From positions 26,385 through 90,384 of the forward strand of contig CAWIMH010000024.1 in NCBI GenBank assembly GCA_963837035.1: DNA of 64,000 bases, read 5' to 3'. The position numbers and the translations under genes were made by a program. The notes below the pieces were generated by a model. It was not told where the DNA came from. It saw only the letters and a program-made list of their open reading frames with translations, and did no database searches. The stretch comes from an uncultured Pseudomonadota bacterium (GTDB taxonomy: Bacteria; Desulfobacterota; Binatia; Binatales; Binataceae). Below are positions 15,422-30,535 of this stretch, piece by piece (positions within the stretch are counted from its first letter, which is position 1; every line of letters begins with the position of its first letter).

Positions 15422-16578
15422 ATGGGCCCGCCCGAAAGCGGGCCCGATCACTTTAAACGTCCGCGATTACCGAATAAAATTGTTTCTGTGAGCAGCAACA
15501 CTACAGACTGGCGCGAAAGCCCTGAGGCGATCGCCGCGGTCGACGCCCTCTTCGCCAGCATTGGCCTCGAACACGGCCGCCGGGCGACGCGTGCTGGAAC
15601 TTGGGCCGCCGGCGAGCGCGTCCATGTCCGTCGCACGTCGACCGTAAGTCCCCGTCGCTCAACAAAGAAGCCCCGCCGCGCCCCCGGCATCATCCGCCCC
15701 GCCGGCTGGGATGCCTATCCCTGGCTGCGCGCAGGTTTCAGCACCCGTGAGGGTGGCGCCACCACCGCCTTCGGCAACCCCGCCGACCTCAACCTCGGCT
15801 GGAACGTCAACGACCCGGCCGAAACCGTCGCCACCAACCGCAAGCACTTCCTCGAGGCCGTCGCTGGCCCCCAGTCGGAATCAAGGCCCGGGGAACCCGT
15901 CGCCGTCCGCCAGTTCCACAGCCCTCTCATCCGTATCGTCGGTCCTGACGCCGGCCCGCTTGTCACCCCCGGAGGCCGCCCTATCCTGCGCGGCGACGCC
16001 CTCATCACCTCACGCCGGGACGTCCTGCTCGCCATCCTCACCGCCGACTGCGTACCGGTCCTCGTCGCCGACACCCGCCGCCGTGTCGTCGCAGCCTTCC
16101 ACGCCGGCTGGCGCGGCACCCTCGCCCGCATCGTCGAGCGCGGCATCGGCACATGCGTCTGCAGTTCGGCTCGCGCCCCAAAGACCTCATCGCCGCCATC
16201 GGCCCCGGCATCGGCGCCTGCTGCTACTCCGTCGGCGAAGAGGTGCGCTTCGACTTTGAGAGCCAGTTCGCCTACGCTCCCTCGCTCTTCTCCGAGGTCT
16301 ACGATTCCGATCCTGTTAAGGACAAATATCCGCTGCTCTTCCTAACCGCGCGCGCGCCCGGCCACTCCAACATCGGCCCGCAGACCCATCTCGATCTCAT
16401 CGAAGCCAACCGCCGTCAGCTCCTCGACGCCGGTCTCAGCGCTTCGAAGATCTCCATCGTCGGTGAGTGCACCGCCTGTACGCGTCTTCCCAACGGCCAG
16501 CGCCGTTACTTCAGCCATCGCGACGAGCACGGCTACACCGGCCGCATGCTCAGTGTCATCGGCGTCGCAAACGAGTAG
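15422..16578 (+). CDS. pgeF: peptidoglycan editing factor PgeF (YfiH/DUF152), copy A; one frameshift near 16150
   Basis: ALITSRRDVLLAILTADCVPVLVAD and AAFHAGWRGT (His-Cys-His site). The C-terminal CTACTRLPNGQRRYFSHRDEHGYTGRML is in ORF 16153-16578. The true start is probably well downstream of 15422. Confidence 0.7.
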
Positions 16579-18198
16579 CTAGGCCTTCCGCTGCAACTCC
16601 TCGAACAGCGCGTCGCGATGCAGCCATCCGTACGCGTCCAACTTGTTCAGGTTCTCGAGGTAGACCCACGCCGCTGCAACGGCCGTGCACGCGAACACGA
16701 TCGGCACAATCCAATTCACGTTTCCCAAACCCGCCAGGTACGTAACCAGCGCACCCACCAACCCTGAAGCCAGCACAATCCCCATGCTGAGGAACGCACT
16801 CGCTGGCCGTGCCTGCTTCTGCGCCGTCCGTCCCGGATCGATCCGCCGTGGTGACCGGATCGACATGTAGTTGCCCACCGTCAATTCCACGAGCAACGTC
16901 GTCACCATCCACAGCACACCATCCAGAATCACCAGCGGCGACGGAGCCTTCGCCGAATACGACAGCACCGCCAGGATCGCAAACGTCTCTGCAATCGCCA
17001 GCCCTGCGCAAAGCACATTCTTACCCATCAGCACTTCACGCAACCGCACCGGTGTGAAGAGTACGTCTGCGCGCCTGTGCCATCCAGTCCAAACGAGTTG
17101 AAACCCATCGGGAACACGCCGATCAGCCCATAAGCCAGCGCCGCCAGAACGACCGTCGATCCATGCGGACTCCACCGCGTCGACCAGCGGCCCGCGAAGA
17201 TCAGCACCATCAGCAGCGGCATGATCAGCCCGTAGAACAGCCCCGTATTGCGCCGCAGATACAGCAGCTCCTTGGCCGCAACCACACGTGTCACATCCGC
17301 CGGTCGCGCCGACGCCTCGACGAACGCCGCAACCGGCGCCGTATGCGTTACCACCTGTTTCGGCGCCTTCGCCGCGCGCACCACATTCGCCGGATCGCTC
17401 AGGTTCTCTCCGCGATACTCCGTTCCCATTCGCCGCGAGAACACAAACAGAAACACACATCCCCACGCAGCCGAAGCCAGATTCTTCACCGCGAACGCGG
17501 TCACGTTGCCCTGAGCGGCCGCCGCAATCGATCTTCCCGCCAGCTCCGGCGGCAAGGCACTCACATACCGCTCAACCTTGGTCAACGTGCTCTGCACTCC
17601 CTGGTATCCTCCCGCAGGTCCACTCGGCGGTTGTGATAGGCCGGGTTGTAGCGAAGTTCAATCCCTGCGCGGCAATCGAGAACAGAAAGATCAGTGCCGT
17701 GAAAGCCTCACGCGCCCGGCGTGTCGAAAGCCAGCGGTCCACCCACGCGAAGATCATTCGCGTGAACAGCACATTCACCACGGCGAACACCGCCATCGCC
17801 GCGAACGCCCAGCCTGCAAGCGACGGCCTCGCGATGGTCACGCCGGCTGCCGCGGCCAGCGACATCAGCGTCACAATCAGGTTTCCCGGCGCGAGAATTC
17901 CGAAGAATAGCCGCACCACCGTGTAGCTCCACACGCCCATCGGGAAGCGGATGAGCTGCCTCGGATCAAACGTCGTCCCGGGCTGCCCAAGGTTCAGGTT
18001 CGCCAGCTGGCTCAGCAGGAAGATGCCCCACAGCACCCAGCTCACTCGGTCGATGTGTCCCGAGACCGCTGCCCACAACGCGGTCGCGCCCGCCCCGAAA
18101 CACAGGCCTCCGACGATCATCAATGCAAACGGAGCCACGGACAGCGTCGCCGCCAGGTCGCTCTTTCCGCCCTTGCGCCGGAAGCCGTTCAGGTACAT
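16579..18198 (-). pseudogene. ABC-2-type transporter permease, copy A (several frameshifts)
   Basis: Polytopic hydrophobic protein spread over ORFs 17572-18771, 17028-17597 and 16579-17466. Partner copy at 23921-25551. Confidence 0.6.
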
Positions 18199-18264
18199 CT
18201 GCCAGCGCAATCGCGTGATCGCGCAACTGCGGACGCGTCTGCGCGGCCGTCCATGCTGTGTGCG

Positions 18265-19067
18265 TGAACTCAGCCACGCCAGCTCACCTTCGCGCACTGC
18301 AGTCTCACCGCCGTCCTTGCCCACCACGCTCAGAAAGATCTGTTCCAGCGTCAGCCGCGATCCCGCCTCATGCGCCTCGGTAGAGAGCTTCGCCTGCACA
18401 CCCGCGCGCAATTCTTCCAATGACCCATGCGCCACAATTCTCCCGTGGTCGATGATTGCAATGTGCGAGCACAGCCGCTCCACAATCTCCAGCACATGCG
18501 ACGTCAGAAAGATCGTTGCGCCGCGCGCAATCATGCCCTGCAGCATCATTTCAACGTGCCCGCCGCCACCGCATCCACGCCCTCGAAAGGCTCGTCGAGA
18601 AACAGCACCTTCGGCCCATGGATCACCGCCGCTGCCAACGCCAGCTTCTTTCTCCATTCCATGCGAGAAGTCGGCGATCAGCTTCTTCTCGCTCGCCGGC
18701 CAATGCATAAACTCCAGCAACTCGCTGTGCGTTCTGCGACGTGGCCGGTCCAGCCCGTACATGCGCCCCACAAACCCAGGTATTCGTCGGCCGTCAGCCG
18801 ACCCAAAGCGCCATGCCCTCCGGCACCACGCCGATGTGCCGCTTCACCTCTAGCGGATTGCGAAAACAGGTCCTCGCCGAGGATCTGGATCGTCCCTGCG
18901 TGGGCGCCAGCAGGCCCGTCAACATCTTGATGGTCGTAGATTTCCCAGCTCCGTTCGGTCCCAGAAAACCGAAGAACTGGCCCGGCTTCGACAGCGAGGT
19001 CAATGTGATCAACAGCCGTGAAGCCATTGAAGCTTCGGCTGAGGTCGTGCACCGCAATCGCATTCAT
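18265..19067 (-). pseudogene. ABC transporter ATP-binding protein, copy A (multiple frameshifts, stop codon replaced)
   Basis: [37 protein letters not shown] and [27 protein letters not shown] lie in different frames. The position matching copy B's TAG reads TCA. Confidence 0.7.
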
Positions 19068-19093
19068 GTTGAGCCGAGTGTACGTTATCCGGA

Positions 19094-19440
19094 ATTACAT
19101 CGGTGGCGGATGATGCGGATCGACTCTCGCCGTCATCTCCCTTGTTTGTCCGGGCTCTGCTTCGCCCGGATTCACCAGGTCCCGCAACTCCTTGCTCGGC
19201 TTGAAGAAGGGAACCCGTTTCCCTGGAACCGCAACTGCCGCTCCGGTCTTCGGATTTCGTCCGGTGCGCGAATTGCGCTGTCGCGTGCGGAAGCTCCCAA
19301 AGCCGCGGACCTCCCACCTTATCGTTGGCTTTCAATGCGCTGATGATGGACTCGAACAGCGTATCGACAATGACCTCACCATCACGGCGTGTGAGATCGC
19401 CGAGTGCGGTGACCTGGTCGACTAGATCAGCTTTCGTCAT
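19094..19440 (-). pseudogene. IHF/HU-family DNA-binding protein, copy A (frameshift after ...KANDKV)
   Basis: The first 42 aa are identical to the intact copy at 22688-23032. The frame is then lost. Confidence 0.7.
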
Positions 19441-19621
19441 GAGGGTTCTCCCGGGGCCAGAGATCTCGCGCTAGCGGTACATTGCCCTTTTTAAGTCTAA
19501 GCCACATTAAACGTTTTCACCATCAGCAGGGCTCACCTGACTAAAAAAAACTGTCTGGGTAAGCCACTGGTTCTCGAAGGTGAGATGCAGCCCGGCGCTC
19601 CCGCGCCTCATCTCGCAATAG

Positions 19622-19649
19622 AAAAGCCCGTACCGAAACACAGGCTTTT
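19622..19649. terminator. hairpin between convergent IHF-like and beta-propeller genes (copy A)
   Basis: AAAAGCCCGT-ACCGAAAC-ACAGGCTTTT, one stem mismatch relative to the perfect copy at 22485-22512. Confidence 0.5.
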
Positions 19650-19665
19650 GGGTCGTCCTTCGAGA

Positions 19666-20855
19666 CTAGTTCGTCGGTGGCGTGCCCACCAGGTTTCCGT
19701 TGGTAATCTGCGCCGAAACCGGCGTAATGGTCGGCGCCGCCACGCCGATAATCTCCGTCAGACGGTAAAGGGGCCGGGCGTGCAGCCTGTGACGTTGCAG
19801 CCCGCATTGCTCATCCAGACGTTCCCGGTCGCATCCACGCCGAGCCGTAAGGCATTGTGGCAGTCCCGCCGCCTTCCCGGGCCCATGCAGGTATTCGGTC
19901 GCCGGGACGCGGCAGGTAATGTTCAGATATATGCTCGCGCCATTCCGGCTCGGATCGGTTACCGGAACGTGCAGAATACTCCCCTCCCCACTCTCCGCCA
20001 CCCAGAGGTGCTTGCCGCCGGAGATCGCCATCCCCCCGGCCGCATTCCTTCGCGCGCCCGTGAAGTTGTAGCAATTCCCGGTCGAGTAGATGCATAGACC
20101 GTCATTCGCCGCATTGCCGGTGCCCGAATAGGAGCGCACCGCGACATCATCGTCGCCGGTAAAGATCACCTGGCCGCTGTTATCGTTCGCGCCGAAGATT
20201 TCCGTCGCTCCAGGAACAGCGGTCACGTAGTGATCCCTGCATCGCCTTCCGTGCGCAAAGTCCGTGATCGTCACCGCGTCGCCGTTGCTCGTGTCACCCG
20301 CCATCGACGTCACCAGGAACGGGAACGTGATAGGGGGAGCGAGCGCGTAGCTGCTGCGGTCGGCCGAGATATTCGCCAGCGCATCCACCAATGAGCTTGT
20401 AGTCATAATGCCCACATTGATGCGGTTATCGCCTCCCACAGTCAAGCTCTCGCTCACCGTATTCGTCAGCGACAGATGTCTGCGTCGTCGTCGGTGCCGA
20501 GGTCAGGTATCCGGACACCGTTGCCGCCGCACTGTCGTTGTACCAGGCAAACCCGTTCGCGTCGATCGCCACCTGCTGCGGATGCACCAGCCCCGGCATC
20601 GCGTTGAATGGCCCGTTGAAACTCTGGCTTGCCGGATCGAAGCATGGGGCGCCGACCTGCCCTGCCGCATTGCTCGGGAACCACATCCTTCCCCGAAGCG
20701 TCGATATCCAGCGTGCTGATTGTCCCGGTATCCACCGCTAGGCCAACGCTGGCATCCAATGCTCCGATGCTGATTTCCGTCGGGAGCCTCCTTCGATTCG
20801 GGAATCGATTCATCACCCTCTTGATCGCCGCGAAACTGTGAACCACCCTTGGCAT
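19666..20855 (-). CDS. beta-propeller-like (NHL/Vgb-like) protein, copy A; frame interrupted several times
   Basis: Pieces lie in ORFs 20466-20876, 20426-20686 and 19666-20457 (VWFPSNAAGQ, IDANGFAWYND, GKHLWVAE, C-terminal LTEIIGVAAPTITPVSAQITNGNLVGTPPTN). ATG at 20855 is preceded by AAGGGAAG. Confidence 0.55.
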
Positions 20856-21044
20856 GGTCACTTCCCTTTCTGACAACCTGGTTGCCGCTGATCACCATGC
20901 TGAACAGTCGCGCAATCTGCCCAGCTCGGCGACCAAATCGGGTTCATTGTCTCATCGGCCTAGTCCGGCCCCGGCCCGCCACGTAGGACACGGCCGCCGG
21001 GCACAACGGTCGCAAAATCGTGTCTCCGGAGCCATGGCTCGATC

Positions 21045-21094
21045 TAAAAAGGGATCAACCGAACCAAGAACGAGGCACGGAAAACCAGATTGCT
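21045..21094. other. unique 50-nt spacer at the palindrome centre
   Basis: TAAAAAGGGATCAACCGAACCAAGAACGAGGCACGGAAAACCAGATTGCT is not self-complementary. It is bracketed by a perfect 14-bp inverted repeat GCCATGGCTCGATC / GATCGAGCCATGGC. Confidence 0.85.
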
Positions 21095-21285
21095 GATCGA
21101 GCCATGGCTCCAGAGACGCGATCTTGCGACCGTAATGCCCGGTCGGCCGTGTCCTGACGTTCGGCGGGCCGCGGCCGACTAGGCCGATGAGACAATGAGC
21201 CCGATTTGGTTGCCGAGCTGGGCGATCTCGCGACTGTTGGCATGGTGATCGGCGGCAACCAGCGTTGTCAGAAAGGGAAGTGACC

Positions 21286-22466
21286 ATGCCAAGGGTAGTT
21301 CACAGTTTCGCGGCGATCAAGAGGGTGATGAATCGATTCCCGAATCGAAGAAGGCTCCCGATGGAAATCAGCATCGGGGCATTGGATGCCAGCGTTGGCC
21401 AAGCGGTTGACACCGGGACAGTGAGCACGCTGGACATCGATGCGAGCGGAAGGGTGTGGTTCCCAAGCAATGCGGCAGGACAGACCGGCGCAGCGTACTT
21501 CGACCCGACCAGCCAGAGTTTCAACGGGCCGTTCAACTCGACGGGGCTGGTGCATCCGCAGCAGGTTGTAATCGATGCGAATGGCTATGCCTGGTATAAC
21601 GACAGCGCGGCGGCGACAGTGGCGGGATACCTGACCTCGGCACCGACGACGACGCAGACTGTGTCCCTGGCGAATACGGTGAGCAAGAGCTTGACGGTGG
21701 GAGGCGACAACCGCATCAATGTGGGCATTACGACTACGAGCTCATCGGCGGAGCTACTGGCGAATATTTCGGCGGACCGCAGCAGCTACACGGTCGCTCC
21801 CGGAATCACGTTCCCGTATCCCGGTGGGGTCGATGGCAGGTGACACGCTCAACGGCGACGCAGTTCACGATCACGGACTTGCCGAGGACAGCGATGCAGG
21901 GCTACTACGTCTCCGCTGTACCTGCATGACAACGGAAATCGTCGGCGCGAACGATGAGAGCGGCCAGGTGATCTTTACCGGCAACGACTACGTGGCGGTG
22001 CGCTCCTATTCGGGCGCTGGCAATGACAATGACGGCCTGTGCATCTACTCGCTGGCGAAGTGCTACAACTTCGCGGGCGCGCGAAAAATGCCGGCCGAGG
22101 GGGTGGCGATCTCCGGCGGCAAGCACCTCTGGGTGGCGGAGAGTGCGACGGGGGTATTCTGCACGTTCCGGTAAACAATCCGAGCCGGAGGGCGCGAGCA
22201 TATATCTGAACATCACCCTGAACGACGTACCGGCGACCGAATACCTGCATGGGCGCCGGGAACGGCGGGACTGCCACAATGCCTACGGCGTCGGCGTGGA
22301 TGCGACGGGAAACGTCTGGATGACAATGCGGGCTGCACACGTCACAGGCTGCACGCCCGGCACCTTTACGTTGACGGAGATTATCGGCGCGGCGGCGCCG
22401 ACAATTACGCCGGTTTCGGCGCAGATTACCAACGGAAACCTGGTGGGCACGCCACCGACGAACTAG
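21286..22466 (+). CDS. beta-propeller-like (NHL/Vgb-like) protein, copy B; frameshifts near 21840 and 22170
   Basis: VWFPSNAAGQTGAAYFDP, IDANGYAWYND, GKHLWVAE, GNVWMT and C-terminal LTEIIGAAAPTITPVSAQITNGNLVGTPPTN. ATG at 21286 is preceded by AAGGGAAG. Confidence 0.6.
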
Positions 22467-22484
22467 TCTCGAAAGACTGACACC

Positions 22485-22512
22485 AAAAGCCCGTGTTTCG
22501 GTACGGGCTTTT
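22485..22512. terminator. hairpin between convergent beta-propeller and IHF-like genes (copy B)
   Basis: AAAAGCCCGT-GTTTCGGT-ACGGGCTTTT, a perfect 10-bp stem with A/T runs on both sides. Confidence 0.6.
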
Positions 22513-22687
22513 CGATCGCGAGGTGAGGCGCGGGAGCGCCGGGCTGCATCTCACCTTCGAGAACCAGGGGCGGCACAGCGAATTTTTTCATCAGGTGAGC
22601 CATGCTGGTGGGTGAAAACGTCTAAGTGGCTTAGACTAAAGGGCAATGTACCGCTAGCGCGAGATCTCTGGCCCCGGGAGAACCCTC

Positions 22688-23032
22688 ATGACGAAAGCTG
22701 ATCTAGTTGACCAGGTCACCGCACTCGGCGATCTCACTCGCCGTGACGGTGAGGTCATTGTCGATACGCTGTTCGAGTCCATCATCAGCGCATTGAAAGC
22801 CAACGATAAGGTGGAGGTCCGCGGCTTTGGGAGCTTCCGCACGCGACAGCGCAATTCGCGCACCGGACGAAATCCGAAGACCGGAGCGGCAGTTGCGGTT
22901 CCGGCGAAACGGGTTCCCTTCTTCAAGCCGAGCAAGGAGTTGCGGGACCTGGTGAATCCGGGCGAAGCAGAGGCCCGGACGAACAAGGGAGATGACGGCG
23001 AGGTCGATCCGCATCATCCGCCACCGATGTAA
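22688..23032 (+). CDS. integration host factor beta-like (HU/IHF family) DNA-binding protein, copy B, intact
   Basis: 114 aa with [46 protein letters not shown] (IHF-type arm) and an acidic, Pro-rich C-terminal tail. Confidence 0.85.
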
Positions 23033-23059
23033 TTCCGGATAACGTACACTCGGCTCAAC

Positions 23060-23865
23060 ATGAATGCGATTGCGGTGCACGACCTCAGCCGAAGCTTCAA
23101 TGGCTTCACGGCTGTTGATCACATTGACCTCGCTGTCGAGCCGGGCCAGTTCTTCGGTTTTCTGGGACCGAACGGAGCTGGGAAATCTACGACCATCAAG
23201 ATGATGACAGGCCTGCTGGCGCCCACGACGGGACGATTCAGATCCTCGGCGAGGACCTGTTTCGCAATCCGCTGGAGGTGAAGCGGAACATCGGCGTGGT
23301 GCCGGAGGGCATGGCGCTGTTGGGTAAGCTGACGGCGCGCGAGTACCTGGAGTTTGTCGGCCGCATGTACGGGCTCGACCGGCGCACGTCGCAGGAACGC
23401 ACAGCAGAGTTGCTGGAGTTCATGAATCTCGCCAATGAGCCGAAGAAGCTGATCGCGGACTTCTCGCATGGAATGGGAAAGAAGCTGGCGTTGGCAGCAG
23501 CGGTGATCCATGGGCCGAAGGTGCTGTTTCTCGACGAGCCGTTCGAGGGCGTGGATGCGGTGGCGGCGGGCACGTTGAAATCGATGCTGCAGGGCATGAT
23601 TGCGCGCGGCGCAACGATCTTTCTGACGTCGCATGTGCTGGAGATTGTGGAGCGGCTGTGCTCGCACATTGCAATCATCGACCACGGGAGAATTGTGGCG
23701 CATGGGTCATTGGAAGAATTGCGCGCGGGTGTGCAGGCGAAGCTCTCTACCGAGGCGCATGAGGCGGGATCGCGGCTGACGCTGGAACAGATCTTTCTGA
23801 GCGTGGTGGGCAAGGACAGCAGTGAGACTGCAGTGCGCGAAGGTGAGCTGGCGTGGCTGAGTTAG
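23060..23865 (+). CDS. ABC transporter ATP-binding protein, copy B; single -1 frameshift at ~23230
   Basis: Walker [10 protein letters not shown], signature-like [12 protein letters not shown], Walker [13 protein letters not shown] and H-loop IFLTSHV. The frame changes between ...LLAPTTG and [10 protein letters not shown]. Confidence 0.8.
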
Positions 23866-23920
23866 CACAACAGCATGGACGGCCGCGCAGACGCGTGCGC
23901 AGTTTGGCGCGATCACGCGA

Positions 23921-25551
23921 TTGCGCTGGCAGATGTACCTGAACGGCTTCCGGCGCAAGGGCGGAAAGAGCGACCTGGCGGCGACGCTGTCCGTGGCTCC
24001 GTTTGCATTGATGATCGTCGGAGGCCTGTGTTTCGGGGCGGGCGCGACCGCGTTGTGGGCAGCGGTCTCGGGACACATCGACCGAGTGAGCTGGGTGCTG
24101 TGGGGCATCTTCCTGCTGAGCCAGCTGGCGAACCTGAACCTTGGGCAGCCCGGGACGACGTTTGATCCGAGGCAGCTCATCCGCTTCCCGATGGGCGTGT
24201 GGAGCTACACGGTGGTGCGGCTATTCTTCGGAATTCTCGCGCCGGGAAACCTGATTGTGACGCTGATGTCGCTGGCCGCGGCAGCCGGCGTGACCATCGC
24301 GAGGCCGTCGCTTGCAGGCTGGGCGTTCGCAGCGATGGCGGTGTTCGCCGTGGTGAATGTGCTGTTCACGCGAATGATCTTCGCGTGGGTGGACCGCTGG
24401 CTTTCGACACGCCGGGCGCGTGAGGCTTTCACGGCACTGATCTTTCTGTTCTCGATTGCCGCGCAGGGATTGAACTTCGCGTACAACCCGGCCTATCACA
24501 ACCGCCAGTGGACCTGCGGAAGATCAGGGAGTGCAGAGCACGTTGACCAAGGTTGAGCGGTATGTGAGTGCCTTGCCGCCGGAGCTGGCGGGAAGATCGA
24601 TTGCGGCGGCCGCTCAGGGCAACGTGACCGCGTTCGCGGTGAAGAATCTGGCTTCGGCTGCGTGGGGATGTGTGTTTCTGTTTGTGTTCTCGCGGCGAAT
24701 GGGAACGGAGTATCGCGGAGAGAACCTGAGCGATCCGGCGAATGTGGTGCGCGCGGCGAAGGCGCCGAAACAGGTGGTAACGCATACGACGCCAGTTGCG
24801 GCGTTCGTCGAGGCGTCGGCGCGACCGGCGGATGTGACGCGTGTGGTTGAGCCAAGGAGCTGCTGTATCTGCGGCGCAATACGGGGCTGTTCTACGGGCT
24901 GATCATGCCGCTGCTGATGGTGCTGATCTTCGCGGGCCGCTGGTCGACGCGGTGGAGTCCGCATGGGTCGACGGTCGTTCTGGCGGCGCTGGCTTATGGG
25001 CTGATCGGCGTGTTCCCGATGGGTTTCAACTCGTTTGGACTGGATGGCACAGGCGCGCAGACGTACTTCTTCACACCGGTGCGGTTGCGTGAAGTGCTGA
25101 TGGGTAAGAATGTGCTTTGCGCAGGGCTGGCGATTGCAGAGACGTTTGCGATCCTGGCGGTGCTGTCGTATTCGGCGAAGGCTCCGTCGCCGCTGGTGAT
25201 TCTGGATGGTGTGCTGTGGATGGTGACGACGTTGCTCGTGGAATTGACGGTGGGCAACTACATGTCGATCCGGTCACCACGGCTGGATCGATCCGGGACG
25301 GACGGCGCAGAAGCAGGCACGGCCAGCGAGTGCGTTCCTCAGCATGGGGATCGTGCTGGCTTCAGGGTTGGTGGGTGCGCTGGTGACGTACCTGGCGGGG
25401 CTGGGAAGCCTGGATTGGATTGTGCCCTTCGTGTTTGCGTGTACGGCCGTTGCAGCGGCGTGGGTCTACCTCGAGAACCTGAACAAGTTGGACGCGTACG
25501 GATGGCTGCATCGCGACGCGCTGTTCGAGGAGTTGCAGCGGAAGGCCTTAG
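23921..25551 (+). CDS. ABC-2-type transporter permease, copy B; frameshifts near 24500, 24850 and 25280
   Basis: Hydrophobic ORFs 23921-24556, 24531-24902, 24905-25597 and 25344-25574. A 1-nt insertion just before the expected TAG (25549-25551) causes short read-through. Confidence 0.6.
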
Positions 25552-26510
25552 CTACTCGTTTGCGACGCCGATGACACTGAGCATGCGGCCGGTGTAGCCG
25601 TGCTCGTCGCGATGGCTGAAGTAACGGCGCTGGCCGTTGGGAAGACGCGTACAGGCGGTGCACTCACCGACGATGGAGATCTTCGAAGCGCTGAAGACCG
25701 GCGTCGAGGAGCTGACGGCGGTTGGCTTCGATGAGATCGAGATGGGTCTGCGGGCCGATGTTGGAGTGGCCGGGCGCGCGCGCGGTTAGGAAGAGCAGCG
25801 GATATTTGTCCTTAACAGGATCCGGAATCGTAGACCTCGGAGAAGAGCGAGGGAGCGTAGGCGAACTGGCTCTCAAAGTCGAAGCGCACCTCTTCGCCGA
25901 CGGAGTAGCAGCAGGCGCCGATGCCGGGGCCGATGGCGGCGATGAGGTCTTTGGGGCGCGAGCCGAACTGCAGACGCATGGTGCCGATGCCGCGCTCGAC
26001 GATGGCGGGCGAGTGGGGTGCCGCGCTTCAGCGGGCGCGCGTGGGGAAGCGGCTGCTGGACGATCACGTGGGGGCGGGTGTCGCCCGGGCGACGAGGACC
26101 CGGTACGCAGTCGGCGGTGAGGATGCTGTCGAGCAGGACGTCCCGGCGTTGAGGGTGATGAGGGGGCGTCGCCGCGCAGGATAGGGCGGCCTCCGGGGGT
26201 GACAAGCGGGGCCGGCGTCAAGGACCGACGATACGGATGAGAGGGCTGTGGAACTGGCGGACGGCGACGTGGTTCCCTCGGGCCTTGATTCCGACTGTGG
26301 GTGCCAGCTGACGGGCCTCGAGGAAGCTGCTCTGCGGTTGGTGGCGACGGTTTCGGCCGGGCTCCGTTGACGTTCCAGCCGATGTGTTGAGGTCGGCGGG
26401 GTTGCTCGAAGGCGGTGGTGGCGCCTACCCCTCCACGGGTTGCTGATAACCTGCGCGAAGCCTGGAGAGGCATCCCAGCCGGCGGGGGCGGATGATGCCG
26501 GGGGGCGCGG
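25552..26510 (-). pseudogene. pgeF: PgeF (YfiH/DUF152), copy B, heavily frameshifted in its N-terminal two-thirds
   Basis: The C-terminal third (DPVKDKYPLLFLTARAPGHSNIGPQTHLDLIEANRRQLLDAG) matches copy A. The upstream part carries many 1-nt insertions, often in C/G/A runs. Confidence 0.65.
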
Positions 26511-26712
26511 CGGGGCTTCTTTTGTTGAGCGACGGGGACTTACGGTCGACGTGCGACGGACATGGACGTCGCTCGCCGGCGGCTCCTAAATCTCCAGCAC
26601 GCGTTGCCCGGCGGCCGTGTTCGAGGGCCAATGCTGGCGAAGACAGGGGCGTCGACCGCGGCGATCGCCTCAGGGCTTTCGCGCCAGTCTCGCCGCCGAC
26701 CATCCGGGATGG

Positions 26713-27264
26713 ATGGATCGAGACAATCCACTCGACGATTTCATACGCCTGGTTATAGAGGACGGTGTTGCCGCGGAGGTCCGCGCGTCGGGCGCGCGAT
26801 CTACGACGGTCTATCCATTTGTGAATGGGGAGCCGACGCTCAACTTCATGGAAGCGGCGAAGCTCGCAGGTCTTGTCGGCCCCAGCATTATCGGGATAGC
26901 GCTGCATCCGGTTTACGGACCGTGGCTGGCGTTTCGCGCCGCGCTCCTGACCGACGTCGAACTCGAGGCCCCGGGTCCGGCGCTCGCCTTCGATCCATGC
27001 CCGTCGTGCGTTTCGCGAAGCTGCATCAATGCCTGTCCGGCCGGCGCGGTAGCGTTTCCAGCGGGATGGGACATCCCGCGATGCCTGACACACCGGGTCG
27101 AGGTTGAAGCGGATTGCGCAGCGCGATGCCATGCGCGCGTCGGATGCGTGGTTGGCCCTCAGCACCGCTATCCCGACGACGAACTCGCTTATCATCAGCG
27201 GCGCGCCCTGCGTGCGATGCGCCCATACTACGACGCAAACCTCCGCCCGAAGCGGTCAGGCTGA
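26713..27264 (+). CDS. 4Fe-4S cluster-binding protein (QueG / reductive-dehalogenase-like ferredoxin domain?)
   Basis: CPSCVSRSCINACPAGA plus CLTHRVEVEADCAARCHARVGC cysteine clusters. Start placed at MDRDNPLDDF, 24 nt outside the palindrome. Confidence 0.4.
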   Translation: MDRDNPLDDFIRLVIEDGVAAEVRASGARSTTVYPFVNGEPTLNFMEAAKLAGLVGPSIIGIALHPVYGPWLAFRAALLTDVELEAPGPALAFDPCPSCVSRSCINACPAGAVAFPAGWDIPRCLTHRVEVEADCAARCHARVGCVVGPQHRYPDDELAYHQRRALRAMRPYYDANLRPKRSG

Positions 27265-27292: not shown

Positions 27293-28270
<978 letters not shown>

Positions 28271-28400
28271 TAGGGTTCACCCCTCAGCGTGCACTTGCAC
28301 CGGATTATATTATGCGCAACCGCTACCCGAACAGCACTCCGCGCCGGCCTGGTAGTGTCCTAATTTGAATTTGCCAGAATCAAGCGCGGGCGCATGATGG

Positions 28401-28640
28401 ATGCCTAAGCGCTCAAGAACAGGCAAGCCTGACGTAAATCAGATGGCCGCTAACCTGATTGACGCTATCAGCGGCGACTTGCCAGAAGAACAACCAGACA
28501 AAAACAAGAACCCCGCTGCGGTGGCACTCGGCAAGCTTGGCGGACTAAAGGGCGGGAAAAGTCGCGCGGCGAAGCTTTCCCCGCGTCGCCGCCGAGCAAT
28601 CGCGAGGAAAGCAGCGCTTAGTCGTTGGTCGAAGAGCTAG
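28401..28640 (+). CDS. small basic protein (KGG / RRRxIARKAA motif)
   Basis: 79 aa: ...NPAAVALGKLGGLKGGKSRAAKLSPRRRRAIARKAALSRWSK. This is a common small-protein motif of unknown role. It lies at the edge of the low-GC islet. Confidence 0.4.
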   Translation: MPKRSRTGKPDVNQMAANLIDAISGDLPEEQPDKNKNPAAVALGKLGGLKGGKSRAAKLSPRRRRAIARKAALSRWSKS

Positions 28641-29196
28641 CGAATACTAGCTGACCTCTAACTTGGCTACGGCCGAATGTATTAATGTCAGTTACCATAC
28701 CGGTCCAAGCTCCTAAATTGCCTAGACCGAACATATCCCCAACGCAAGATCCCGCACCGATAGTTTGACACCCTCGATTCTCGGTGGCGGCGTAGGAACA
28801 CGCCACATTTAATTGTGAAGGCATCGATCCCGAAACAACCGTCCCAGATGTGCCACCCGCTATCAGCGATAAACAGTTCGACGTGGGAAAAGCTAAGGAT
28901 GATCCAGAGTTGAAAATTACCGTCGAGGAGGTGTTCGTTTGAACCTCATTGGTAGACTGTACAAATAAGGCTCCGCGAATAATCTCTGAAACCGTGACAT
29001 GTTGGTTAATTGCTCTTTCTCGAAGAGCCTCTAGCTCATCGACCGTCAACCGTAGAGAGAACACGACGCTCCCAGTTCCTTGCACAACTGTTAAATTTGA
29101 TGGTCCGCCGCTCCAATCTATTGAAGCACCTCGCCGCCGTACTAGTTCGTCGGCTAAAGCGTCATCGCTTAGACGTTGTGATTGTCGTTTTCGCAT
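28618..29196 (-). CDS. ribbon-helix-helix (BrnA/CopG-like) antitoxin candidate with ~110-aa Ser/Thr/Gly/Cys-rich C-terminal extension
   Basis: The RHH-like segment VVFSLRLTVDELEALRERAINQHVTVSEIIRGAL fits a beta-strand followed by two helices. Its start codon overlaps the stop of the upstream toxin-like ORF (ATGA). Confidence 0.45.
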   Translation of the reverse strand: MRKRQSQRLSDDALADELVRRRGASIDWSGGPSNLTVVQGTGSVVFSLRLTVDELEALRERAINQHVTVSEIIRGALFVQSTNEVQTNTSSTVIFNSGSSLAFPTSNCLSLIAGGTSGTVVSGSMPSQLNVACSYAATENRGCQTIGAGSCVGDMFGLGNLGAWTGMVTDINTFGRSQVRGQLVFASSSTND

Positions 29197-29555
29197 TATT
29201 CTCTATGGTCTCTAGATTTCAACGGCTTGCCTAGCCATTTGAGATAGAGCGCGACCTCTTGTTGATTGCTCTCATACCCCGTGACAATTCGCCAGACCTC
29301 TGCCTCTTCTGTATCCCTTATTGCTATAGTCCAGAAACGTCCATCCTCCGATCGTCCGATCAGCAGATCAGATGCCGTCCCATCTATTCGGTTTGGGAAA
29401 GGAATCGGTGCATCATCGAGCACTTGATTGGCGAGTCTTGGGCTAAACCCGTGAAGCATGGCACATTTTTCGATCGTTTCATCGCGCCACCGGAAGGATT
29501 TTATTCGCCCTAGGTCTCGTGGACGTGCCCCCTTTCTGCTTCGACGCCTCCCCAT
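29196..29555 (-). CDS. BrnT/DUF497-like toxin candidate
   Basis: FRWRDETIEKCAMLHGFSP...VLDD...LLIGRSEDGRFWTIAIRD...VWRIVTGYESNQQEVALY follows the BrnT pattern (F-W...HG...LIGxxxxGR...RIISAR...E..Y). It lies upstream of and overlaps an RHH gene. Confidence 0.45.
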   Translation of the reverse strand: MGRRRSRKGARPRDLGRIKSFRWRDETIEKCAMLHGFSPRLANQVLDDAPIPFPNRIDGTASDLLIGRSEDGRFWTIAIRDTEEAEVWRIVTGYESNQQEVALYLKWLGKPLKSRDHRE

Positions 29556-29591
29556 TGTATGACGATGGCGTAATGCGGTACAACTGAGATC

Positions 29592-30000
29592 GTGAAAGTC
29601 GAATTCTTAATGCTTGCTGATGCCGCGGAGGCGCTGGGAGGTAAAGTTTTCCTGCTTGGCGGCGGATGGGACACTTATAGAGCGCCCATATATCCGGCTG
29701 TTAATCGCATGGCAATCGTGGTCGGGATTATGTTTGATTCTGGGGAATCGGGCCAAAGCTACAAGGGTCGGCTCACAATTTCTGAAGTGAATGGGCATGA
29801 TCTGAATCCCCCCCGCTGAATTTGAGGCCCGCCCTACATTTGCGGAGGATCTTCCCCAAGACGCTCATGCGAAAACATTGCTTGCGATGAATTTAGTTCT
29901 CCAGATCCCCGGGCCTGGTTCCTACAAAGTCAAAATAAACATCGGAGAAGTAGAACGGGAAACCCAGTTTTATGCAGTTCTAGCTAAGACGGCCGTATGA
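29592..30000 (+). CDS. hypothetical protein, interrupted at a C7 homopolymer (29808-29814)
   Basis: ORF 29592-29819 continues in the +1 frame from 29815 as AEFEARPTFAEDLPQDAHAKTLLAMNLVLQIPGPGSYKVKINIGEVERETQFYAVLAKTAV*. Removing one C joins the two parts. Confidence 0.4.
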
Positions 30001-30071
30001 GGATTAGAGCACCTAAAGCACGTTAAAAGCAAACCGCCCAACGTTGCAGCGTTGAGCGGCTTAGATAGCGC

Positions 30072-30148
30072 GGTGGTTTAGCTCAGCATGGTAGAGCAGT
30101 CGGCTGTTAACCGATTGGTCGGGGGTTCAAAGCCCCCAACCACCGCCA
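30072..30148 (+). tRNA. tRNA-Asn (GTT), CCA encoded
   Basis: Hand-folded cloverleaf: acceptor GGTGGTT/AACCACC, D arm GCTC..GAGC, anticodon arm GTCGG-CTGTTAA-CCGAT, T arm GGGGG-TTCAAAG-CCCCC, discriminator G, CCA. Confidence 0.85.
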
Positions 30149-30365
30149 AACCTTTGCGCCTCTCATTTTGTAGCACAGGTGGAGCTTGGTATTCTAGCCA
30201 TCTGTCCAGCATATCTGCTTGACAATGCCTATGCGCTCAAGTGTCGCTTTTGACCCGGGTCCTTGTCCGGGAACACCTCCCGTCAAGTTTCGGCGGAATC
30301 GATTTTTCGCCGATGGTTATTGTCGCCGTCATCTGGTTCCTTCAGATCTGGCTGCTTCCTACTTT

Positions 30366-30535
30366 GGGCAACTTGCTGACGCTACGGCTATGGTTGATAT
30401 GCACATCGACGGGCGGGCGCACATAAACCGCCGCACGATTCTCCTTGGGCAACTTACTGACGTCTAGCTACGGCTACGGTTGATTTGTCGTCGACGGACG
30501 GGCGCTTCATAAACCGCGGCAACGGCACGATTGCT
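30366..30535. repeat. imperfect tandem direct repeat, two units of ~80-90 nt
   Basis: Unit 1 is GGGCAACTTGCTGACGCTACGGCTATGGTTGAT...CATAAACCGCCGCACGATTCTCC. Unit 2 is GGGCAACTTACTGACGTCTAGCTACGGCTACGGTTGAT...CATAAACCGCGGCAACGGCACGATTGCTC. The repeat ends at the stop codon of the cobA/hemD gene. Confidence 0.55.

Follow-up and report, generated by a model that had tools for sequence, protein, structure and literature searches.

Self-alignment of the window (the whole 64,000-nt stretch of contig C24 that was analyzed) yielded a single large imperfect palindrome at 15505-26690, which extends over 11.2 kb and folds around a spacer of 50 nt. Its arms carry genes for a beta-propeller-like lipoprotein, an HU/IHF-like protein, the ATPase and permease of an ABC transporter, and PgeF. 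The features of the palindrome and of the sequence at its outer right end are listed below in window coordinates.

15505-21044: left arm, genuine Acidobacteriaceae sequence that runs on from the left flank
21095-26690: right arm, the left arm repeated in inverse orientation, regarded as a false duplication by fold-back
21045-21094: non-palindromic spacer of 50 nt at the fold point, flanked by the perfect inverted repeat GGAGCCATGGCTCGATC
15662-16575 (+) and 25555-26525 (-): left and right copies of the pgeF (Cu-oxidase_4) gene, with Pfam and NCBIfam matches
16579-18198 (-) and 23933-25551 (+): left and right copies of the ABC-2-type permease gene, coordinates mapped from the genes of contig L016
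18266-19067 (-) and 23060-23864 (+): left and right copies of the ABC transporter ATPase gene, DrrA-like, orthologue of 268 aa in relatives
19095-19440 (-) and 22688-23032 (+): left and right copies of the HU/IHF-like DNA-binding protein gene, orthologue matching NCBIfam/Pfam Bac_DNA_binding
19666-20746 (-) and 21395-22466 (+): left and right copies of the 3' half of the lipoprotein beta-propeller-like gene, both cut at the fold point
17651-18224, partner 23907-24480: longest near-identical block of the arms, 574 nt, single mismatch at 17800
16687-16777, partner 25352-25442: substitution-only patch, 11-12 substitutions and 0 indels
18630-18922: divergent and noisy left-arm patch in the N-terminal third of the ATPase
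25930-26690: outer end of the right arm at raw-read quality, 760 nt with ~72-99 inserted bases
26691-27261 (+): junction and 5'-truncated gene of a QueG-like Fe-S protein, in the Binataceae part

In the relatives the module comprises propeller paralogues, the HU/IHF-like gene, the ATPase, the permease, pgeF on the opposite strand and a dehydroquinase-shikimate dehydrogenase fusion. The five-gene module is single-copy in three relatives, whose contigs were found through the ATPase. In the 5.8-Mb assembly there are two copies only, both in the C24 palindrome. An IS21- or Mu-like mobile element with its ATPase was considered for the arms and rejected, as they consist of housekeeping genes in conserved synteny. 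The permease, whose orthologue in the relative is an uncharacterized protein of 539 aa, is split over four frames in the left copy; the right copy is also frameshifted, giving a long low-identity match and a frame change near aa 453. A G4 to G3 deletion after Walker A is common to both copies of the ATPase (18897 and 23229), and the left copy contains about nine more 1-nt indels. The HU gene is frameshifted in the left arm and intact in the right arm, and the right copy of pgeF is shattered by insertions. Of the ~663 residues of the propeller lipoprotein, only those from ~258-300 onward are present in the window. The relatives harbor three to four tandem full-length paralogues of this lipoprotein (~663 aa) with a weak Vgb-lyase-like beta-propeller signature. 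Compared with the left-arm copy, the right-arm propeller lies somewhat nearer to the 'a'-type paralogues (0.80 vs 0.77 and 0.75 vs 0.72), and it is intermediate between the paralogue types.

The two arms represent the same locus on opposite strands and are separated by the 50-nt gap; their breakpoints thus lie within the ~200 bp that characterizes fold-backs. Fold-backs retain adapter or low-complexity sequence between their segments in a minority of cases; when the spacer was compared with the ONT ligation adapter, the best local match was weak (15/19, shuffle P ~0.03-0.06) and is given no weight here. The fold point beheads the 663-aa lipoprotein gene in both copies, and no homologue of the propeller N-terminal domain was found anywhere in the assembly (G000). 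Likewise, the 13 kb that lies upstream of the locus in relatives is absent from the assembly, and no homologue was detected there of the acidobacterial-type TonB-dependent outer-membrane protein, the GH2 protein and the proline dehydrogenase that neighbor the locus in relatives. An exact search of JGI metagenome contigs for a 22-mer common to both arms near the center gave no match, which is uninformative.

The contig switches organism exactly at 26690/26691, where the right arm has its outer end. The right arm ends in the region upstream of pgeF and there meets the Fe-S protein gene, whose orthologues have 255 aa (the metagenome protein P0121, 97% identity, and proteins of G002, G003 and G016). 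Homology to these begins at codon ~66, exactly at 26692, and the missing 5' part of the gene was not found anywhere in the assembly. The sequence immediately beyond 26691 is clean, and the 760 nt before the junction are of raw quality. On the left side, the window from 20746 to 8393 aligned to the ENA contig L016 in one collinear block of 12.5 kb with 85.7% identity, and likewise to L017; the left flank and the arms are collinear with Acidobacteriaceae-type contigs at 85-88% DNA identity. The gene order of the left arm recurs in L021 and L023, and the named matches of the ATPase include Granulicella cerasi, Bryocella elongata and Terracidiphilus. Collinearity over 12.5 kb at 85-88% marks the left arm as ordinary genomic DNA from an Acidobacteriaceae organism. 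Over 13 kb the right flank runs collinear, at 73-84% identity, with the same-genus relatives of the MAG, and its named relatives, which belong to Candidatus Binataceae, were deposited under 'uncultured delta proteobacterium MFD...'. Between these same-genus relatives and the left flank and arms no synteny was found; the sole match was one universally conserved gene at 66%, below that to other classes. The same-genus GTDB relatives (G001-G003) belong to the Binataceae side and are of no use for the arms. Tetranucleotide composition (PC2) is -10 to -14 at 1-40 kb of C24 and about -2 from 50 kb on, compared with 0.1 +/- 2.7 in the rest of the genome; GC changes little across the switch. Gene-level taxonomy, synteny and nucleotide composition thus change abruptly along the contig, as is characteristic of an inter-phylum chimera. 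An exact search for the 26690/26691 junction in JGI metagenome contigs gave no match, which is likewise uninformative; these searches thus yielded no independent assembly of the acidobacterial species with either junction or with the native sequence beyond the propeller gene. Judged by its sequence, C24 is an inter-phylum chimera, of which the first ~53 kb (window 1-26690) are Acidobacteriaceae and the remainder is Binataceae.

The first-pass annotation, working from a hand alignment, had described the arms as a mosaic in which identical stretches alternate with densely diverged ones. Formal alignment and counting in 50-nt windows confirmed this and showed that the differences are clustered. 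Over the whole palindrome the arms are 93.7% identical by BLAST (418 mismatches and 300 gap columns, in which every difference is tallied twice), and perfect or near-perfect collinear blocks are shifted relative to each other by 1-base indels. In a global arm alignment three zones can be distinguished. The outer 700 nt hold ~72 surplus bases in the right arm and nearly no substitutions, the middle zone (~16200-19400) is mainly identical with few dense patches of differences, and in the central zone (19500-21000) the arms are just 80-90% identical, chiefly owing to substitutions. Within 16579-19067, 44 substitutions and 27 indel columns were counted in 2504 aligned columns (97.2% identity). These differences are strongly clustered (variance/mean ratio 3.75 in 50-nt windows), with 27 of the 50 windows free of differences, and the longest perfect run is 424 nt, compared with a mean of 167 and a maximum of 411 in shuffles (n=5000). 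Tracts of identity and divergence are thus clustered beyond chance, as expected from gene conversion. The hand pairings of arm coordinates were 11-12 nt out of register. An identical block reported as 560 nt does exist in near-identical form, but it spans 574 nt and contains the mismatch at 17800. A patch of ~12 substitutions free of indels was recovered at the corrected coordinates 16687-16777/25352-25442; it comprises seven synonymous and four non-synonymous codons, and both arms are clean alleles there, each partly matching relatives. The N-terminal third of the ATPase, estimated to differ at about one position in ten, contains 25 substitutions and 9 indel columns in 300 columns (18630-18922), that is about one in nine.

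For the analysis of codons both arms were aligned with two relatives, codons were read in the relatives' frames, and the ratio of synonymous to non-synonymous differing codons was compared with the ~25% synonymous codons expected by chance. Synonymous changes were in excess in HU (5:1, P=0.0045), the ATPase (12:8, P=0.001), the permease (11:6, P=0.0009) and the propeller (39:55, P=0.0004), whereas pgeF (4:18, P=0.86) fits pure noise. The synonymous-biased substitutions described before are therefore real in four of the genes, pgeF being unbiased, and the bias bears out the earlier view that part of the divergence is not random read error. It follows from this bias that two naturally occurring alleles contributed to the arms.

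A second kind of difference is noise. At 25930-26690 the right arm contains insertions of 1-8 nt that are missing from the left arm and from the relatives, and the left arm agrees with both relatives in 99 indel columns. At 18630-18922 it is the left arm that deviates, the right arm matching the relatives at 9/9 indel columns and at 21/25 substitutions. In each noisy patch a single arm is deviant in substitutions and indels alike, and frameshift noise co-localizes with the divergent patches (Spearman 0.34, P=0.015). The noise of the arms is complementary: in a merged sequence, where every difference was set to the state that the relatives support, HU, pgeF and the C-terminal half of the propeller each read in one frame again, and a single frameshift common to both arms is left in the ATPase (the G4 to G3 deletion) and another in the permease. 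Gene conversion would involve purely evolutionary change with intact frames, whereas the divergent tracts hold many 1-nt indels, always on the deviant arm. No real gene copy could have acquired nine frameshifts within 300 nt alongside a 12:8 synonymous bias, and the indels in 18630-18922 are errors in the consensus of a haplotype with poor support. As a control, IS copies in the same assembly (~2.5 kb, many copies) were inspected and found to be 99.9-100% identical with 0-1 gaps, so that a general failure to polish repeats was rejected. In a further control, comparison of the 7-kb left flank with the relatives showed only a few non-triplet indels; these are possible frameshifts and are mostly intergenic.

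The right arm is very probably a false inverted duplication that stems from a fold-back or chimeric long read, and the mosaic a product of uneven polishing, not of gene conversion. Almost certainly the left arm alone is genomic, and the two arms do not represent paralogous copies within a single genome. The error profile and the record names of the relatives (MFD..., contig_N) suggest a Nanopore/Flye origin. In a fold-back artefact the breakpoint would lack the backing of most reads over the site, of which the raw-quality patches and the complementary noise would be indirect signs. From the contig we infer the mechanism at the level of reads, including depth and spanning reads, as follows. At the end of the acidobacterial piece the draft path would have met a fold-back or chimeric long read; the path would have run through propeller, HU, ATPase, permease and pgeF, turned inside the propeller gene and returned on the opposite strand. 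On reaching the fragment end, which corresponds to 15505, the returning path would have been joined to an unrelated Binataceae fragment in the middle of a gene. The false second copy would then offer reads of the single real locus two mapping places. Reads split between the arms would produce one shared consensus and thereby the zero-difference blocks, while reads anchored in the unique left flank would all go to the left arm, so that the outer right arm would never have been polished. Elsewhere the better draft arm would take all reads and the other would keep raw errors together with SNPs of the seeding strain, resulting in indel-rich clustered patches. Reads of co-occurring strains or of unassembled tandem propeller paralogues would sort to the more similar arm, which may have generated the clean patch at 16687-16777 and the highly diverged center; the intermediate position of the right-arm propeller between paralogue types is consistent with such sorting. 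As a pure template-complement fold-back represents one haplotype, the synonymous-biased differences need an extra assumption, either sorting of strain or paralogue reads or a draft seeded by a minor strain.

In primate sex-chromosome palindromes and plastid inverted repeats, gene conversion acts from arm to arm, and both arms are present at full depth and without frameshift noise. The C24 palindrome resembles such genuine palindromes and inverted repeats in its long identity tracts broken by clustered, partly evolutionary-looking differences, but differs from them in that the divergent patches hold raw-read errors and one arm ends at a chimeric junction. As in fold-back artefact reads (Heinz, Meyerson & Li 2026, PMC12870357; Xie et al. 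2026, PMC13141652), one locus appears on both strands, the halves are separated by a very short stretch that does not map (here 50 nt), both arms terminate at one base, one half is of lower quality, and the spacer lacks a convincing adapter, the usual case according to these authors. Fold-backs make up ~0.55-0.6% of ONT gDNA reads, often without a recognizable adapter between the halves (PMC12870357), and inverted chimeras amount to 0.18-7.33% in ligation preparations (PMC13141652). Unlike in those reads, the structure is fixed here in an assembled and partly polished contig, whose arms would have been unevenly edited by other reads and have ceased to be simple copies, and beyond the palindrome comes another chimeric join, to a different organism. 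Long-read assemblers, metaFlye among them, have been described as yielding multi-phylum chimeras, false duplications and paths that rest on a single read (Trigodet, Sachdeva, Banfield & Eren 2025, bioRxiv 10.1101/2025.04.22.649783). C24 shares with these chimeric contigs the abrupt switch in gene-level taxonomy and composition and a duplication that exists in the assembly only, on a path apparently supported by one or very few reads. In that study the false duplications are long direct repeats and the cases are defined by read clipping, whereas the duplication in C24 is inverted and is recognized from the contig sequence.

The first-pass annotation had attributed the mosaic to gene conversion between two real paralogous copies, which would imply a real inverted duplication of the five genes in one genome, homogenized except for unconverted patches and a diverged center. 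The significant clustering of the differences, the synonymous bias in four genes and the patch at 16687-16777 that is clean in both arms would all fit, as would divergence that increases toward the center, which would stabilize a long palindrome. Nonetheless, the evidence speaks against it and we regard it as quite improbable. On its outer side the right arm stops at an inter-phylum junction adjoining raw-quality sequence, which argues, indirectly, against both copies lying in one genome. Both boundary genes are truncated with their missing halves absent from the assembly, frameshift noise occurs where the divergent patches are, and the noise of the two arms is complementary. The three relatives have one copy of the module, and real repeats of the same assembly are clean. 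Moreover, truly divergent paralogous patches should be the best polished, because reads map there unambiguously. In a variant of this reading, a single Acidobacteriaceae strain would contain in its chromosome a genuine 11-kb inverted duplication that arose through snap-back replication; gene conversion would maintain the identity of its outer arms and the 10-20% divergence of its center would prevent hairpin or cruciform processing, with the Binataceae join and the noise being separate assembly faults; we give this joint claim equally little credence.

Real allelic differences between the arms are also what would be expected if an assembler or graph error had concatenated, in inverted orientation, two strain haplotypes or neighboring tandem propeller paralogue regions of one acidobacterial locus. 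The slightly greater proximity of the right-arm propeller to the 'a'-type paralogues would agree with this, and long-read metagenome assemblers are documented to concatenate haplotypes and to introduce false duplications (10.1101/2025.04.22.649783). Yet the documented concatenations and false repeats are direct, not mirror images, large stretches of the arms are base-for-base identical, and an exact mirror arrangement around the 50-nt spacer, in which both arms terminate at one and the same base, is the hallmark of a fold-back, so that such an error, as a variant of the artefact, is unlikely, if still worth considering. Recent horizontal acquisition of >50 kb of Acidobacteriaceae DNA by a Binataceae chromosome, accompanied by a palindromic rearrangement where the DNA was inserted, would explain that the join exists in the deposited contig, but appears extremely improbable: this DNA shows the usual synteny of housekeeping genes (aroDE fusion, pgeF, HU, peptidase M3, VKOR) and is 85-88% identical to acidobacterial contigs, the junction has no mobile-element features and lies in raw-quality sequence, and the recipient Fe-S gene is simply cut.

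The palindrome with its mosaic is almost certainly not a real genomic feature, and the value of the finding lies in quality control, not in biology. About 53 kb of Acidobacteriaceae DNA are filed in a Binataceae MAG on a contig that joins two phyla, five genes are falsely duplicated and two falsely truncated, and annotation of C24 would yield many spurious pseudogenes. The case also illustrates how an artefactual duplicate in a metagenome assembly can look like gene conversion, since reads of minor strains or of unassembled paralogues are drawn to the surplus copy, which thereby gains genuine synonymous-biased variants beside identical tracts. Synonymous bias by itself is thus no proof that two copies coexist in one genome.

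Contig CAWIMH010000024.1 (C24) consists of about 53 kb of Acidobacteriaceae DNA joined to Binataceae DNA, and the switch falls at the right end of the palindrome in three respects: synteny, named homologues and tetranucleotide composition. The two parts are:

Window 1-26690 (C24 1-53074), Acidobacteriaceae
Window 26691-64000 and the remainder of C24, Binataceae

Within the palindrome, the ATPase gene of both arms carries a G4 to G3 deletion directly past the Walker A motif (window 18897 and 23229), and a 1-nt deletion at the stop codon is likewise common to both arms (18267/23863). These common deletions are probably systematic consensus errors. In the Binataceae part, relatives matched the hemB-like gene (window 27296-28276) in three different frames, indicating about two frameshifts and thus residual consensus indel errors beyond the palindrome as well.

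In the Acidobacteriaceae relatives, a lipoprotein of about 663 aa was found as three to four tandem paralogues with DNA identities of 70-94%, immediately followed downstream by the HU and ABC-2 transporter genes. The paralogues lie on three contigs of these relatives:

L021 3220-9406
L017 1127-9177
L016 4000-9406

The lipoprotein combines a conserved N-domain with a C-domain bearing a weak beta-propeller signature, and received no name from any family model.

Apart from C24, whose acidobacterial part has an unusual tetranucleotide PC2, such values (-8 to -9) were also observed for contigs C9 and C29 of the bin, and a weaker shift of the same kind (-4 to -5.5) for C30, C31 and C12. C9 and C29, and with a weaker signal the other three, may be additional contaminant contigs. 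A second noisy inverted repeat (L022) was located about 350 nt from the end of contig C11:

C11 82157-83541 and 84654-86071, arms of 1.4 kb, spacer of 1.1 kb, identity 92.8%, 49 gap columns

In the terminal 7.4 kb of C11, neither an ORF longer than 215 aa nor a Pfam match was detected; this could be another contig end with poor support.

On the Binataceae side, window 28300-30460, which separates the hemB region from the conserved gene that follows it, is missing from the same-genus relatives G003 and G002 and is therefore an insertion specific to the MAG genome. Across many contigs, this genome also harbors dozens of repeat copies with lengths of about 2.5, 1.85 and 1.55 kb, for example:

C15 382810-385329
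C18 226567-229093

Copies are 99.9-100% identical, several of the repeats occupy contig ends, and they are presumably active IS elements.
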